64,000 nucleotides of DNA from Gemmatimonadota bacterium. GTDB taxonomy: Bacteria > Gemmatimonadota > Gemmatimonadetes > Palauibacterales > Palauibacteraceae. Made by a program: the position numbers and the translations under genes. The stretch covers positions 224,001 through 288,000 of the forward strand of contig OZ220691.1 of assembly GCA_965116475.1 (NCBI GenBank). The letters are read 5' to 3'. The notes under the pieces were generated by a model, which made no database searches, was not told where the DNA came from, and saw only the letters and a program-made list of their open reading frames with translations. This document shows positions 60,417 through 64,000 of the stretch, in pieces. Positions within the stretch are counted from its first letter, which is position 1, and each line of letters opens with the position of its first letter.

Positions 60417-60815
60417 CTATCCGACGGTTCGGACCAGTCCGGACTCGATGATGCGGCGGTCCCGGGTCAGAAGCGTGGCGCCCAGGGCCCTGGCCGTCGC
60501 GACGATCGTCCTGTCCGCGGGATCGCGGTGGAACGAATCCGGCAGGGCCGCGATCTCCGAAGCGATGGCCGGCGATATCCCCTGCCGCCGAACCAGCGGA
60601 GGCGCCACGGCCTTCTCCAGCCAGTCGCGCAGCGGGATCGACAGCCGGATCCGGCCGAGACCGCACAGCGTCGCCACCTCCAGGAGAGAAATATCCGAAA
60701 CGATCAGGGGCGTCCGGCCGTCGGCCGCTTCGATGATCTCCCGTTGGGCCGCGGAGAGGCGACCCGAATCCTCGAACCACCAGATCAGGATGTGCGTGTC
60801 CAGCAGCGGCGTCAC
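60417..60815 (-). CDS. vapC: Type II toxin-antitoxin system VapC (PIN domain) toxin
   Basis: LLDTHILIWW, ISLLEVA, HRDPADRTIVATA, LLTRD; GTGA overlap with the antitoxin. Confidence 0.92.
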   Translation of the reverse strand: MTPLLDTHILIWWFEDSGRLSAAQREIIEAADGRTPLIVSDISLLEVATLCGLGRIRLSIPLRDWLEKAVAPPLVRRQGISPAIASEIAALPDSFHRDPADRTIVATARALGATLLTRDRRIIESGLVRTVG

Positions 60816-61051
60816 TTCCCCAGCATCTCCCAGTGTTCCTCGGGAATCGCCGGCCCGACGATATCGCCGTGCACGGTAACGGTCCCGATCAACTCCTCCT
60901 GCGGGTACTCGGAGGCGGAATGGCTTGGCGGGACAAGTTCGGCGACCGGCCGACCCCGTTTCAGGATGACGATCCGTTCACCGGTATCGCGCACCCTGTC
61001 GAGGATCGCCAGGCACCTGGCTTTGAAGTCGGAAGCGTTGATCGTTTCCAT
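60812..61051 (-). CDS. Phd/YefM family antitoxin
   Basis: INASDFKARCLAILDRV..TGERIVILKRGRPVAELVP. Confidence 0.92.
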   Translation of the reverse strand: METINASDFKARCLAILDRVRDTGERIVILKRGRPVAELVPPSHSASEYPQEELIGTVTVHGDIVGPAIPEEHWEMLGK

Positions 61052-61087
61052 ATGACCAGACTTGACGACCAGTCATCCGATTGTCAA
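61052..61087 (-). promoter_or_regulatory. Probable promoter/operator of the toxin-antitoxin operon (possibly leaderless)
   Basis: TTGACA at 61087-61082 on the minus strand, 30 nt before the ATG; no SD; ATGAC...GTCAT inverted and GACCAG direct repeats. Confidence 0.5.
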
Positions 61088-61152
61088 CCCTCGGCTCCTC
61101 CGAGTCCTGGTATTGGTTTGGCGGAGGAGGACGCGCGCGTTACGGTGGGGGC

Positions 61153-62604
61153 ATGGAACACGCTCAGCTTCCATCGGACGGTCTCGTGGTCGTCGTCAAG
61201 CGGGACTGCCCTACCTGCCAACTCGTCGAACCCGCGCTTGAGCGGCTCGCGGCCGACCCCGGCGGCCTGGCCGTCTTCAGCCAGGACGACCCGGGCTTCC
61301 CCGCCGCCGTCCCGGGTGTCATCGACGACACGGCACTCGAACACTCGTTCCGGCTCGACGTAGAGACGGTTCCCACGCTCGTGCGCTTCGAGGGCGGGCA
61401 AGAGGTGGGCCGCGCGGTGGGGTGGAACCGGGCGGAGTGGCGCGACCTGACGTCGACGCCGGACCTGGGCGCGGAACTGCCCGAGTTCCAGCCGGGCTGC
61501 GGTTCCCGGTCCGTGGAACCCGGCGCGGCGGAGCGGCTGCGGGCGCGCTTCGGCGAGACCGGCATCGAAGCGCGACAGGTGGCGCTGGACCCGCATGCGG
61601 ACGCCGTGGAGGCCTGCTTCGAGCGCGGGTGGACGGACGGACTGCCCGTCGTCCCGCCGACTCCGGAGCGGATCCTGCGCATGCTCGCGGGCACGCCCCG
61701 GGCTCCGGACGAGGTCGTGGGCGCGGTGCCGCCGGACTACGCGGAGTGCACGGTCGAGAAGGTGGCGATCAACGCCGTGCTCGCGGGCTGCAAACCGGAG
61801 TACATGCCCGTCCTGCTCGCCGCGCTCGAGGCCGCGCTCGACCCGGGCTTCACGCTGCACGGCATTCTGTGCAGCACGTGCTTCACGTCGCCTCTCATCA
61901 TCGTCAACGGCCCCATCGCCCGCCGCATCGGGATGAACGCGGGACTCAACGTCCTCGGGCAGGGGAACCGAGCCAACGCCACCATCGGCCGGGCGCTCAA
62001 CCTCATCGTGCGCAACGTCGGCGGCGGCCGGCCCGGCGAGATCGACCGATCCACCTTCGGGGCGCCGAGCAAGTACACGTTCTGCTTCGCGGAGGACGAG
62101 TCGGACGACGAATGGGAGCCGCTCTCGGTGGCGCGCGGCCTCCCGCGCGGGGCCAGCGCCGTCACGCTCTTCCAGGGCGAGGGCGTGCAGGGGGTCATGG
62201 ACCAGCGCTCCCGCACGCCCGAGGAGTTGACCGCGTCGCTGGCGGCGTGCCTGCTGGCCGTCTGCCACCCGAAGATCTGCGAGTGGGCGCACGCGGTGCT
62301 GCTCCTTTCGCCGGAGCATTACGGTATCTACCGGGCGGCGGGCTGGGACCGGGCGCGGATCACCAAGGCGCTGCTCGAGGCGACGACGCGGCCGCTGAGC
62401 GAGGTGGCGCGCGGCGCGGGAGGCCTCGCCGAGGGCGTGCCGGATTCGGAGACGCGCCGCCACGTGCCCAAGTTCCTGCCCGGTGGACTGCTCCTCGCCC
62501 GGGCCGGCGGCGCGGCCGGACTGTACTCCGCCATCCTGGCCGGCTGGCCCGGCGGCCGCGCCTGGCAGCACTCATACCCCATCACGAGAGAGATCGACAC
62601 ATGA
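61153..62604 (+). CDS. Thioredoxin-like (CPTC) domain fused to an uncharacterised domain; partner of the UGSC selenoprotein
   Basis: VVVKRDCPTC...VETVPTL; PGCGS; RGWTDGLPVVPPT, EKVAINAVLAGCKPEY, GNRANATIGRA; ATGA overlap with next gene. Confidence 0.8.
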   Translation: MEHAQLPSDGLVVVVKRDCPTCQLVEPALERLAADPGGLAVFSQDDPGFPAAVPGVIDDTALEHSFRLDVETVPTLVRFEGGQEVGRAVGWNRAEWRDLTSTPDLGAELPEFQPGCGSRSVEPGAAERLRARFGETGIEARQVALDPHADAVEACFERGWTDGLPVVPPTPERILRMLAGTPRAPDEVVGAVPPDYAECTVEKVAINAVLAGCKPEYMPVLLAALEAALDPGFTLHGILCSTCFTSPLIIVNGPIARRIGMNAGLNVLGQGNRANATIGRALNLIVRNVGGGRPGEIDRSTFGAPSKYTFCFAEDESDDEWEPLSVARGLPRGASAVTLFQGEGVQGVMDQRSRTPEELTASLAACLLAVCHPKICEWAHAVLLLSPEHYGIYRAAGWDRARITKALLEATTRPLSEVARGAGGLAEGVPDSETRRHVPKFLPGGLLLARAGGAAGLYSAILAGWPGGRAWQHSYPITREIDT

Positions 62605-63164
62605 CCGCTCCGACCGCGGGCAGCCCTCCGACACCGGCGACGCCGGCGACTGTCCTCCACGACCCCACCTCCGAACTCGCCCCCGAGATGCGCCCGCGGC
62701 GCGCGCCTCCTCCGTCGCTCGAAGGACGGGTGGTGGCGCTCCAGGGGATCGGAAAGCTCCGCAGCGACGAGTTCCTCGACCACGTGAAGGCGCGGCTCGA
62801 AGCGCGCGGCATCGCGACGATCCGCACCGACAAGCCGACCAACGCCCGGCGGGCATCGACCGAACTCCTGCAGAGGATCGCCACCGAGGCCGATGTCGTG
62901 GTGCAGGCGCTGGCCGATTGAGGGTCCTGCACGTCGTGCGGTCTGCACGACCTCAGAGACCTCGATGAACGCGGGATCCCCGGCTGCTTCGTCGTCACGA
63001 CCGAGTTCGAGGAAGCCGCGCGCAGCCAGTCCCGCTCGCTCGGCTTCGAGCCCGGCATCGTCTGGGTCCCGCACCCGATCCAGAACCGCACCGCGGCGGA
63101 ACTCGAGGCGCTGGCCGAGGAGGCGATCGACCCGATTCTGGCCATGATCACCACCACGGACTGA
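62601..63164 (+). CDS. UGSC family selenoprotein (Sec at codon 107; 187 aa)
   Basis: In-frame TGA 62919-62921 reads ALAD-U-GSCTSCG; the frame stays open with high GC3 to TGA 63162-63164. Confidence 0.88.
62933..62951 (+). promoter_or_regulatory. Putative bacterial SECIS element
   Basis: GTCGTGC-GGTCT-GCACGAC perfect 7-bp stem starting 11 nt after the UGA, loop beginning GG. Confidence 0.78.
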
Positions 63165-63309
63165 CCCCGACTGATCCCCCGGCGGTCCGACCGGCCGGGC
63201 CGGACCGTCTCTCGCGGGCGCGTGCCCGGAACCCTCGGACTTGCTCACGGCGTCGAAAGCCGTCTATTTGGCAGCAGCAGGATCGAGACTGAAACAGCCA
63301 GGAGGCCGC

Positions 63310-64000
63310 ATGCCGACCCGCCGACGATTCCTCGCCCGCCTCGGGGGCTCCGCCGCAGCCGCCGGAGCCATGACCATGGTTCCCACGAAGTGGAGCACCG
63401 CAGTCGCGGCGGCCCGCGACCTGTCCCGCACGCCCGGCTCCGCCGAGGAGATCGCGCGCGACGAGGAGTTCTGGCTCGAGATCCAGAAGGCGTTCACCAC
63501 CGACCGTTCCCTCGTCAACCTCAATAACGGGGGCGTGAGCCCGACGCCCGCCCACGTGCTCGAGGCGATGAAGCGGGACCTCGACTTCGCGAACCAGATC
63601 CCGGTCTACAACGGGTGGCAGATCCTCGAGCCGCAGCGGGAGGGCGTCCGCGCCCGGCTCGCCCGGCAGTGGGACGTGGACCCGGAGGAAGTCGCGATCA
63701 CGCGCAACGCCTCGGAGGGCCTCCAGATCCTCCAGAACGGGTACGACCTCGAGCGCGGCGACGAAGTCGTGACGACGACCCAGGACTACGGGCGCATGAT
63801 CACGACGTTCCAGCAGCGCGAGCGCCGCGAGGGGATCGTCATGAAGCAGTTCAAGATCCCGGTCCCGGCCGAGGATCCGGCCGAGATCGTGCGGCTGTTC
63901 GAGGAGCAGATCACCGACCGCACGCGGCTCATCCTCATGTGCCACATGATCAACATCACCGGGCAGATCCTCCCCGTGCGCGAGGTCGTGGAGATGGCGC
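63310..64000 (+). CDS. Aminotransferase class V (cysteine desulfurase / isopenicillin N epimerase-like) with Tat-like signal, 3' partial
   Basis: AGGAGG RBS; MPTRRRFL; VNLNNGGVSP, EEVAITRNASEG, GDEVVTT.QDY; runs off the window end and is absent from the ORF track. Confidence 0.87.
   Translation, partial: MPTRRRFLARLGGSAAAAGAMTMVPTKWSTAVAAARDLSRTPGSAEEIARDEEFWLEIQKAFTTDRSLVNLNNGGVSPTPAHVLEAMKRDLDFANQIPVYNGWQILEPQREGVRARLARQWDVDPEEVAITRNASEGLQILQNGYDLERGDEVVTTTQDYGRMITTFQQRERREGIVMKQFKIPVPAEDPAEIVRLFEEQITDRTRLILMCHMINITGQILPVREVVEMA

Follow-up and report, generated by a model that had tools for sequence, protein, structure and literature searches.

What does a selenoprotein of the UGSC family do, and with which partner does it do it? 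The question is raised by two overlapping genes, A and B, near the end of a 64,000-nucleotide stretch of a Gemmatimonadota genome (the whole stretch is called the window here), the second of which is interrupted by an in-frame TGA. UGSC-containing proteins were catalogued by Zhang and Gladyshev in 2007-2008 (PMC1976440, PMC2398784), and the family occurs in aerobic aquatic or marine bacteria. In the 2008 paper the protein is given a 'likely Trx-like fold', its fusion to an unnamed conserved domain ('Unknown_1', which may be the large domain described below) is already printed, and 255 Sec (selenocysteine) forms and 21 Cys forms are counted in GOS (PMC2398784). A 2026 review lists UGSC among the families with largely uncharacterised functions. 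A first-pass annotation of the locus had proposed a novel two-component selenium-dependent redox system; the selenoprotein, its partner and the Sec machinery proved to be real, but the novelty was overstated, the family having been catalogued in 2007-2008. The individual features described in that annotation, i.e. the 483-aa protein with CPTC and PGCGS, the ATGA overlap, the TGA read-through and the 7-bp hairpin 11 nt further on, all lie where it had placed them (Table 1).

Table 1 Features of the gene A-gene B locus, in window coordinates
Feature	Position	Strand	Description	Basis
Gene A	61153..62604	+	483 aa: thioredoxin-fold domain, Cys-bearing linker and large unnamed domain; stop included	ORF and translation
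Thioredoxin-fold domain	61153..61461	+	Approximately residues 1-103; CPTC at residues 19-22 (61207-61218)	Fold and CxxC
PGCGS linker	61492..61506	+	Residues 114-118; Cys116 codon (61498-61500) is a Sec/Cys position	Codons of homologues
Large domain	61576..62601	+	About 340 aa, residues ~142-483; Cys213 (61789-61791), Cys311 (62083-62085)	Conservation
ATGA	62601..62604	+	Gene A stop overlaps UGSC start; translational coupling	Read from sequence
Gene B	62601..63164	+	Selenoprotein of the UGSC family; 187 residues, U107 among them; range includes the last stop	PF24696 match
In-frame TGA	62919..62921	+	Selenocysteine U107, first residue of U-G-S-C-T-S-C (62919-62939)	Codon conservation and tRNA-Sec
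SECIS hairpin	62933..62951	+	7-bp stem and 5-nt loop GGUCU, beginning 11 nt past the UGA	Fold and covariation

Translation of 62601-63161 with TGA read as U yields a product that includes VVVQALAD-U-GSCTSCGLHDLRDLDERGIPGCFVVTTEF...IVWVPHPIQ. It matches the Pfam profile PF24696 with 118 bits (cut-off 25; E 6.3e-34), residues 19-184 aligning with model positions 2-171 of 172, and NCBIfam NF041046 with 120 bits over model positions 2-146 of 147; the latter score, obtained with Cys replacing Sec, is 5 bits under the strict naming threshold (equivalog cut-off 125). A whole-genome scan revealed one UGSC copy, with one TGA inside. Among 77 homologues found adjacent to a gene A homologue, 76 cover the Sec position, and the codon there is TGA in 72, TGC in two and TAG in two, the host genomes of the TAG forms having a tRNA-Sec-like gene with a CTA anticodon. 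Coding conservation continues past the UGA, as the first-pass reading implied: H116, D117, F136, H158, P159 and R163 do not vary among 74 sequences, nor do D106, U107, G108 and C110 around the Sec itself, S109 is nearly constant (at least 90%), and the motif UxxCxxCxxH is invariant within the orthologue group. The AF2 model of UGSC (pLDDT 92.5) has a flavodoxin-like fold in which U107-x-x-C110 is positioned at the N-terminus of a helix.

Bacterial SECIS elements are hairpins found within about 11-12 nt of the UGA, with G/U in the loop. The arms of the hairpin in gene B, GUCGUGC (62933-62939) and GCACGAC (62945-62951), pair perfectly and are present in the centroid fold. Taken singly, the sequence has a modest advantage over shuffles (z -1.98; 7 of 200 shuffles fold as well), and it is the comparative evidence that places the hairpin above chance: of the 504 stem cells in the alignment of the window with 72 TGA genes 96.8% are paired, and compensatory changes occur in three of its seven pairs, the observed values being reached by none of 500 shuffles. 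In two TGA-type actinomycete paralogues the stem is kept through further changes, and in the two TGC homologues the peptide is kept while the stem pairs in only 5/7 and 4/7 positions (read by eye from the aligned letters). An Rfam scan of the window gave no match, and neither sigma-70 promoters nor intrinsic terminators were found by scanning 60700-63500. Among sequencing runs, rows with a small share were left aside; one RNA-library run gave contigs over 26 of the 30 bins of the stretch, which does not show transcription; none of them bridges the hairpin, one ending at 62939 and a separate one beginning at 62942.

The machinery for Sec insertion, also expected from the first-pass reading, is encoded in the genome: selA (491 bits), selB (372.6 bits) and a tRNA-Sec (79.7 bits) with anticodon TCA (UCA). 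The selD gene is present but lies in two frames, with a Sec codon of its own and a frame change in a C run (G000:C1, near 176975); should this split be real and not an artefact of assembly, the genome would be unable to insert Sec. With the PF24696 score, the TGA in 72 of 76 homologues and the covariation of the stem, the claim of a UGSC selenoprotein is borne out, and on sequence evidence gene B is a true selenoprotein gene whose UGA-107 is decoded as Sec, aided by the SECIS hairpin within the reading frame. It is a member of the UGSC family (PF24696/NF041046) by its full-length profile match, its U-G-S-C motif and the strong preference for Sec over Cys, and no feature sets this copy apart from other members.

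Gene A homologues of 63-90% identity share its start Met, and the AF2 model of the protein is of high quality (pLDDT 95.1, pTM 0.91). The thioredoxin-fold domain and its CxxC are conserved, as seen in structure searches and in 80 homologous loci; the scores with PF00085 (12.2 bits, cut-off 23.5) and TIGR01068 (17.5 bits, cut-off 96.8) are below the thresholds, and the N-terminal domain of gene A has the thioredoxin fold but does not count as a thioredoxin. Database records call the whole protein 'thioredoxin family protein', a name that fits only a fifth of it.

The linker Cys116 is encoded by a Cys codon in 75 of the 80 loci and by TGA (Sec) in five, and this exchange argues for a redox-active residue. 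A hairpin 12 nt past the linker TGA is fully paired in 5/5 Sec forms against 1/75 Cys forms; the fold energies of the five hairpins were no better than those of shuffles, and sequence invariance and full pairing were used instead. The linker Cys persists even in divergent Redoxin fusions in which a degenerate CPTS stands in place of CxxC. Pyruvoyl self-cleavage between PG and CGS (cf. PrdA/GrdE) was considered for the linker and dropped, as standalone and UGSC-fused forms of the large domain are devoid of it; the Cys to Sec change in five loci fits redox use, and similarity to PF09338 was not found.

The large domain gave no match in Pfam or NCBIfam, the gene A and UGSC profiles found nothing meaningful among PDB sequences, and 29 of the 30 nearest feature clusters of the domain are without a common Pfam family. 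Its own family nevertheless comprises 6239 representatives at 50% identity. In the 80 loci C213 is conserved in 78 and C311 in 79, H236, H389, D162, D298 and R280 are present in all 80, and both Cys hardly vary in the domain family as a whole, standalone forms included. The matches listed by a wide fold search with the whole gene A model were all thioredoxins. Thioredoxins apart, the best Foldseek match of gene A was 7xky_A (E 4.4e-4, prob 0.82, TM 0.21/0.31, rmsd 14.2), which is the alpha chain of a class I fumarate hydratase with two subunits; the class I enzymes of Leishmania were matched too. As the domain has no recognisable relative, conservation alone points to catalysis in it.

The partnership of the two genes is evident on several scales, in keeping with the co-occurrence assumed in the first-pass annotation. 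UGSC adjoins gene A in 77 of the 80 loci, which come from Gemmatimonadota, Pseudomonadota, Actinomycetota, Acidobacteriota, Chloroflexota, Nitrospirota, Myxococcota and other phyla (in loci L048 and L087 gene A is present and no UGSC was found within 4 kb), and gene A is directly upstream of UGSC in 29/29 loci located through UGSC. Of 301 Gemmatimonadota genomes, 35 have both genes and none has only one of them above the threshold. Culturable carriers include Hyphomonas neptunium (PMC1976440), Xanthobacter sp. and Pseudonocardia lutea. Natural fusions of UGSC to the large domain were found as well (P0228, P0233 and P0270, with P0225 as a post-Sec fragment), UGSC being carried by 4 of 74 scanned members of the large-domain family. 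Since P0228 and P0270 have lost both motif Cys of the UGSC domain, UGSC is not the redox centre in every lineage. The large domain may also bear alternative N-terminal AhpC/Redoxin modules, and in a search for longer forms three of four matches joined a Cys-type UGSC domain to a flavoprotein that resembles thioredoxin reductase and has the motif CGTCDG. Among divergent actinomycete paralogues of the large domain 11 of 12 have their own adjacent UGSC paralogue (nine of Cys type, two of TGA type); these pairs have no thioredoxin domain, up to four of them occur in one genome, and they keep the core [U/C]-G-S-C motif and not C113 and H116. The minimal conserved unit is UGSC with the large domain, the thioredoxin part being optional, and genome comparison identifies gene A as a genuine, near-obligate partner of UGSC. 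To the printed accounts of UGSC, as far as their available text goes, a flavodoxin-like modelled fold and this near-obligate partner are added. The first-pass annotation had overlooked the UGSC fold, as well as linker Cys116 as a Sec/Cys site and the optional nature of the thioredoxin part.

Paralogous pairs have SDR, Amidohydro_2, CoA-transferase III, acyl-CoA dehydrogenase and thiolase-like proteins and TetR/IclR regulators as neighbours. In the 80 loci thiolase (7), SDR (8) and AMP-binding (5) genes are found nearby, selA follows the pair in ten and selB in seven; the alternate-frame clusters that six-frame ORF clustering of these loci placed over gene A were spurious. The paralogue neighbours hint at the breakdown of carboxylic acids or acyl-CoA compounds, the themes being weak and lineage-bound.

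The Sec region of gene B had been likened to that of GrdB, and a likeness of a remote and local kind was found. NCBIfam models of the GrdB, GrdF, GrdH and PrdB type match UGSC weakly, all on residues 80-164 (E 0.0028-0.16), with scores far below the cut-offs, and hhalign aligns UGSC with GrdB/PrdB-like selenoproteins Sec on Sec (probability 81.4%, E 1.2e-5) over 60 columns only. PF07355 has no match in gene B, in its genome or in 14 control genomes, and is matched in 26 of the 301 genomes of the phylum; no match to GrdA (PF04723) or GrdE/PrdA (PF09338) was found in the 96.3%-complete genome, and no positive control was matched by these models either. Short GRDB-like selenoproteins of the phylum (L103-L114) were set aside, being other than UGSC and having no gene A neighbour by HMM. 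The UGSC Sec loop thus appears to be a remote, local homologue, a distant cousin, of the GrdB/PrdB Sec loop; the pair is neither a glycine reductase nor a proline reductase and may work like the GrdB/PrdB enzymes without being a member of the group.

We propose that the two overlapping genes probably encode one two-protein thiol/selenol-dependent enzyme, a relay reductase. The large domain of gene A would hold the substrate site, for which the invariant polar residues D162, H236, N275, R280, D298, E314 and H389 together with Cys213 and Cys311 are candidates. In the modelled flavodoxin-like fold, U107-x-x-C110 at the helix N-terminus would serve as the reducing or nucleophilic centre and pass into a selenenylsulfide. 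In the subfamily that has a thioredoxin domain of its own, C19/C22 of this domain and a swinging linker Cys116 could re-reduce this centre, drawing reducing power from the NADPH/thioredoxin-reductase system of the cell. Because the Sec loop is distantly related to that of GrdB/PrdB, reductive cleavage beside a carbonyl would be the most likely chemistry. A wider reading, which we hold only tentatively and consider possible though doubtful, is that UGSC and the 340-aa domain form a large unrecognised superfamily of two-component metabolic reductases that depend on thiols or selenols and belong to aerobic bacteria. Its evolutionary cousins would be the B subunits of the Stickland glycine/proline reductases, though its substrate-binding partner would be entirely different; each paralogue would be tuned to its own carboxylic-acid or acyl-CoA substrate, and both subunits would carry Sec in some lineages.

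Several other readings have to be weighed against the relay reductase. That the TGA is a genuine stop, with a separate or decaying gene downstream and the hairpin as a by-product of the peptide, is close to refuted: the modest z-score of the single sequence, the Rfam null and the frameshifted selD of the assembly speak for it, but 72 of 76 orthologues from different phyla share the TGA at the aligned site and have an open and conserved frame beyond it, the stem shows compensatory changes and the TGC forms have let the stem go (5/7, 4/7), and the TAG forms live in genomes with a CTA-anticodon tRNA-Sec-like gene. It is unlikely, though not negligibly so, that UGSC is a mere electron carrier, a selenium redoxin reduced by TrxR-type flavoproteins, with Cys213/Cys311 doing all the substrate chemistry and Sec never contacting the substrate. 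The UGSC::TrxR-like fusions are laid out like known thioredoxin-reductase/thioredoxin fusions, [U/C]xxC at a helix N-terminus is redoxin-like, and C213 and C311 are nearly invariant even in standalone forms; yet these fusions are only three similar clusters, the excess of Sec over Cys (72 against 2 here, 255 against 21 in GOS) would be unusual for a mere carrier, and the loop with which the Sec loop aligns in GrdB/PrdB-like proteins is catalytic.

We find it improbable that the pair serves in stress defence or detoxification and not in metabolism, its U-x-x-C-x-x-C-x-x-H binding or reducing a toxicant (peroxide, disulfide, or a metal or metalloid, for example selenite, tellurite, arsenic or mercury). 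Antioxidant proteins typically have thioredoxin-fold or AhpC/Redoxin modules at the N-terminus, UxxCxxCxxH is invariant in the orthologue group and selA (10/80) or selB (7/80) follows the pair in some loci; sel genes, however, commonly cluster with the main selenoprotein gene of a genome, no conserved regulator, transporter or known resistance gene lies beside the pair in the 80 loci, the paralogous pairs, up to four per genome, are found in catabolic-type clusters, and C113 and H116 are not kept in paralogues. Slightly more improbable still is a non-redox hydro-lyase or isomerase in which Cys and Sec ligate an Fe-S cluster or metal. Its model would be the two-subunit class I (Fe-S) fumarate hydratases and tartrate dehydratases, composed of a larger subunit and a partner of ~170-190 aa, sometimes fused; class I fumarate hydratases (7xky_A and the Leishmania enzymes) are the best non-thioredoxin Foldseek matches of gene A, and the spacing of UxxCxxC resembles the CxxCxxC of cluster-binding motifs. 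The large domain nevertheless superposes poorly on them (TM 0.2-0.3) and has no sequence relation to them, which makes the match a lead only, and there is no three-Cys cluster site.

UGSC is thus essentially never found without one partner domain, itself a large family absent from Pfam and NCBIfam and with no solved relative found here; the pair carries up to three thiol/selenol centres and a Sec loop apparently related to that of the Stickland reductases. With these elements an abundant orphan selenoprotein becomes a testable two-protein unit. Annotation is affected as well: gene callers cut gene B short at its TGA and, in some Burkholderiales, the partner at its linker TGA.

Compared with known systems, the 103 N-terminal residues of gene A share the fold of thioredoxin and the TlpA/ResA-type oxidoreductases and have CxxC at the expected place, but differ from them in sub-cut-off scores and in the 340-aa domain to which a linker with a Cys/Sec position joins them. 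In GrdB/PrdB-type enzymes Sec acts in a thioredoxin-linked reductase. UGSC differs from GrdB, GrdF, GrdH and PrdB (PF07355, TIGR01917/TIGR01918) in being devoid of the N-terminal GRDB region of ~300 aa, in having an unrelated unnamed domain as partner and in its host lineages, which, judging by their names, are not Stickland fermenters; it shares with them a strand, U-x-x-C at the start of a helix, the helix itself, and E-x-x-G-I-P followed by a strand that ends in a P-H-P-like turn.

Gene A encodes a protein of three parts, a thioredoxin-fold domain (CPTC, C19/C22), a PGCGS linker with Cys116 and a large domain of ~340 aa, and overlaps gene B at an ATGA; translation of gene B through its internal TGA gives a product of 187 aa with D-U-G-S-C-T-S-C-G-L-H-D at residues 106-117. 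The first-pass annotation had placed both frames, the ATGA overlap, and the internal TGA with the hairpin behind it, and was right in every detail. The nearest proteins in the databases carry the name Candidatus Palauibacter, which belongs to Gemmatimonadota. A pair of toxin-antitoxin genes lies directly upstream of gene A. The N-terminus of the aminotransferase encoded downstream (RRRFLARLGGSAAAAGA) resembles a twin-arginine signal, and this gene is not kept beside the pair at other loci.

Features of the UGSC locus and the selD gene of the source genome (window positions unless prefixed)
Feature	Position	Strand	Description
PIN-domain toxin and Phd/YefM antitoxin	60417-61051	-	132 aa and 79 aa, genes overlapping
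gene A	61153-62604	+	483-aa protein
gene B (read-through frame)	62601-63164	+	ATG to TGA 63162-63164, open if TGA 62919-62921 is read through
SECIS hairpin	62933-62939 with 62945-62951		Perfect 7-bp stem, loop GGUCU, 11 nt past the UGA
class-V aminotransferase (Aminotran_5)	63310-64000	+	Downstream of the pair
selD (loci L010/L011)	G000:C1:176319-177246	-	Source genome, outside the window; in-frame TGA at the active-site position, HGAG-U-ACK

Gene B is a further member of the catalogued UGSC family, matching Pfam UGSC (PF24696) with 118 bits and NCBIfam NF041046, 'UGSC family (seleno)protein', with 120 bits against a cut-off of 125, and it is the only UGSC copy in the source genome. Its structural model (pLDDT 92.5) has a flavodoxin-like three-layer fold in which the selenocysteine (Sec) opens helix 108-123. 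In the literature passages that mention it, UGSC was termed 'a selenoprotein of unknown function' in 2007 (PMC1976440), was counted in GOS as 255 Sec and 21 Cys forms in 2008 (PMC2398784), and still stands among the families with largely uncharacterised functions in a 2026 review; these passages give neither a function nor a conserved partner gene.

Comparison of homologous sequences argues strongly for decoding of UGA-107 as Sec. Taken singly, the hairpin folds in a modestly unusual way (z -1.98; 7 of 200 shuffles equally good), and the window has no match in Rfam. The homologue set comprised 80 loci from many phyla encoding relatives of gene A, and the Sec codon was covered in 76 of the 77 adjacent UGSC homologues, being TGA in 72, TGC in 2 and TAG in 2. 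When the window and the 72 TGA genes were aligned without gaps, 96.8% of the 504 stem cells were paired and both-sided changes were seen in 3 of the 7 stem pairs; the observed pairing or covariation was reached by none of 500 shuffles. Read by eye, the peptide is preserved in both TGC genes with only 5/7 and 4/7 stem pairs, and the two TAG genes pair at 7/7. Past the UGA, 74 sequences show no variation at H116, D117, F136, H158, P159 and R163. A sign of conservation at the nucleotide level comes from four sequencing runs, in which summed contig depth rises several-fold to about twenty-fold over 62900-62971 (UGSC motif and SECIS) and contigs are interrupted at 62939/62942; these words are evidently common to many members of the community. 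The contigs of one run from a metatranscriptome library, labelled sponge metagenome, span 26 of the 30 bins of the stretch, which is not proof of transcription; the hairpin is crossed by no contig, one contig ending at 62939 and another beginning at 62942.

The source genome encodes selA (491 bits), selB (372.6 bits) and tRNA-Sec with anticodon TCA (79.7 bits). Its selD switches between two reading frames at a run of C near 176975, which may be an indel or homopolymer error of this single-contig assembly or a broken gene. The TAG forms of UGSC (L068:5665-5667 and L093:5653-5655), with the hairpin kept, are found in actinobacterial genomes, one of them titled Candidatus Blastococcus massiliensis. 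These genomes carry a tRNA-Sec-like gene with a CTA anticodon (L145:1497-1592 and L144:1497-1592; 64-66 bits in Rfam), and the match of codon and anticodon points to putative UAG-to-Sec recoding in both. Such recoding has been described for Geodermatophilaceae.

The association of the two genes is close. A UGSC homologue adjoins gene A in 77 of the 80 loci, just downstream on the same strand in 75 and divergently upstream in 2; among the remaining three, the contig stops at the gene in one, and no UGSC lies within 4 kb in the other two. Among 301 Gemmatimonadota genomes both genes occur in the same 35 and neither exceeds the threshold in the other 266, and gene A lies directly upstream of UGSC in all 29 loci of this phylum located through UGSC, the genomes being kin rather than independent cases. 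In one relative of the same class (G204:C1:1866673-1867718) the gene A match falls in two pieces in different frames beside an intact UGSC gene, which suggests a frameshift in this copy. Across 301 sampled actinomycete genomes the large domain was matched 22 times, in 14 genomes. Twelve divergent matches in genomes not flagged as unpublished were examined, leaving out 6 in unpublished genomes, 3 top orthologues and 1 fragment. The large-domain paralogue has its own UGSC paralogue directly beside it in 11 of the 12, in either gene order and without the thioredoxin domain; the core that is conserved thus consists of UGSC and the large domain, and the thioredoxin part is an accessory in the subfamily of gene A. 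The motif site of these UGSC paralogues is Cys in 9 and TGA in 2, both TGA forms being followed by a hairpin with an AGUUU loop and further compensating stem changes.

The large domain matched no Pfam or NCBIfam family in any of the 74 family members scanned, and a sequence search of the PDB returned no relative. The model of gene A is confident (pLDDT 95.1, pTM 0.91); Foldseek gave for its large domain poor matches to class I fumarate hydratases (7xky_A, E 4.4e-4, TM 0.21/0.31, rmsd 14.2) and to Toblerone-fold amidohydrolases, and a wide fold search with gene A was dominated by thioredoxins and hence said little about this part. This is a large family, with 6239 representatives at 50% identity; at 90% clustering, each of the 8000 candidates scored was significant. 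The domain occurs alone (~340-360 aa), duplicated (~710-740 aa), after AhpC/Redoxin domains and after a UGSC domain (proteins P0228, P0233, P0270 and P0225), P0225 starting just past the Sec site, as expected of a gene call restarted after TGA.

Exchange of Sec and Cys is a textbook sign of a catalytic redox residue. UGSC orthologues have U107, C110, C113, H116 and D117 invariant, and the paralogues keep only [U/C]-G-S-C. Gene A has Cys at positions 19 and 22 in all 79 loci that cover them, at 213 in 78 of 80 and at 311 in 79 of 80. Five of the 80 loci have TGA as the codon of linker Cys116 (L050:4346, L056:4325, L062:4334, L078:2600 and L087:4343), all from metagenome-assembled genomes labelled Beta-proteobacteria or Burkholderiales, in which gene A itself encodes a selenoprotein with PG-U-GS. 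An identical 21-nt hairpin lies 12 nt past the linker TGA, fully paired in 5/5 Sec forms as against 1/75 Cys forms; its fold energies are not significant and the five Sec forms are related. One of them, L087, has no UGSC within 4 kb. For the PG-U-GS protein, gene callers would report two genes, one for a small thioredoxin and one for an unknown protein of 360 aa. The linker Cys is retained even where CxxC has decayed to CPTS, which suggests that it pairs with Cys19. A search for longer UGSC forms gave four matches, three of which (the metagenome proteins P0274, P0275 and P0277; Pyr_redox_2) are fusions of a Cys-type UGSC placed before a thioredoxin-reductase-like flavoprotein with CGTCDG.

Starting from the Sec decoding, obligate pairing and Sec/Cys sites that these comparisons establish, we propose that the cellular NADPH/thioredoxin-reductase system would give reducing equivalents to C19/C22, which would pass electrons on to linker Cys116. 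In a tentative order, Cys116 would then serve the U107-C110 selenenylsulfide of UGSC, and UGSC would act on a putative substrate held by the large domain, with C213, C311, H236, H389, D162, D298, E314 and R280 as candidate residues. Nothing besides the pair is conserved in the surroundings of the 80 loci, where selA follows the pair in 10 and selB in 7, and neighbours include thiolase (7), SDR (8), aldo-keto reductase (6) and AMP-binding enzyme (5) genes. Near the actinomycete paralogues, SDR, Amidohydro_2, CoA-transferase, acyl-CoA dehydrogenase and thiolase-like genes and TetR/IclR regulators recur, a weak hint of organic-acid or acyl-CoA catabolism.

Among known systems, selenoprotein B of glycine and proline reductases (GrdB/PrdB) was compared with UGSC. 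Gene B gave weak matches (E 0.0028-0.16) to NCBIfam GrdB, GrdF, GrdH and PrdB-type subfamily models, all aligning residues 80-164 with model positions 320-399. Pfam GRDB was matched in 26 of 301 genomes of the Gemmatimonadota sample, and the 12 loci returned all end at a TGA followed by 82-108 residues beginning U-x-x-C (11 of 11 without L114, from a genome flagged unpublished). The Pfam model itself appears to stop at the Sec. Of these 11 proteins (L103-L113), 2 are full-length GrdB/PrdB-like and 9 are shorter, the TGA coming after an open frame of 161-256 aa; none belongs to UGSC or adjoins gene A. The profile of the 11 aligned with the UGSC profile over 60 columns, Sec on Sec (probability 81.4%, E 1.2e-5). 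UGSC is without the N-terminal GRDB region, and the source genome gave no match to GRDB, GrdA or GrdE/PrdA in searches whose positive controls were all silent. Since the Sec loops align and the GRDB region and partners are absent, UGSC may work like selenoprotein B and is not a member of that family. The unit of gene A and gene B is an uncharacterised variant of the thioredoxin-linked selenoenzymes.
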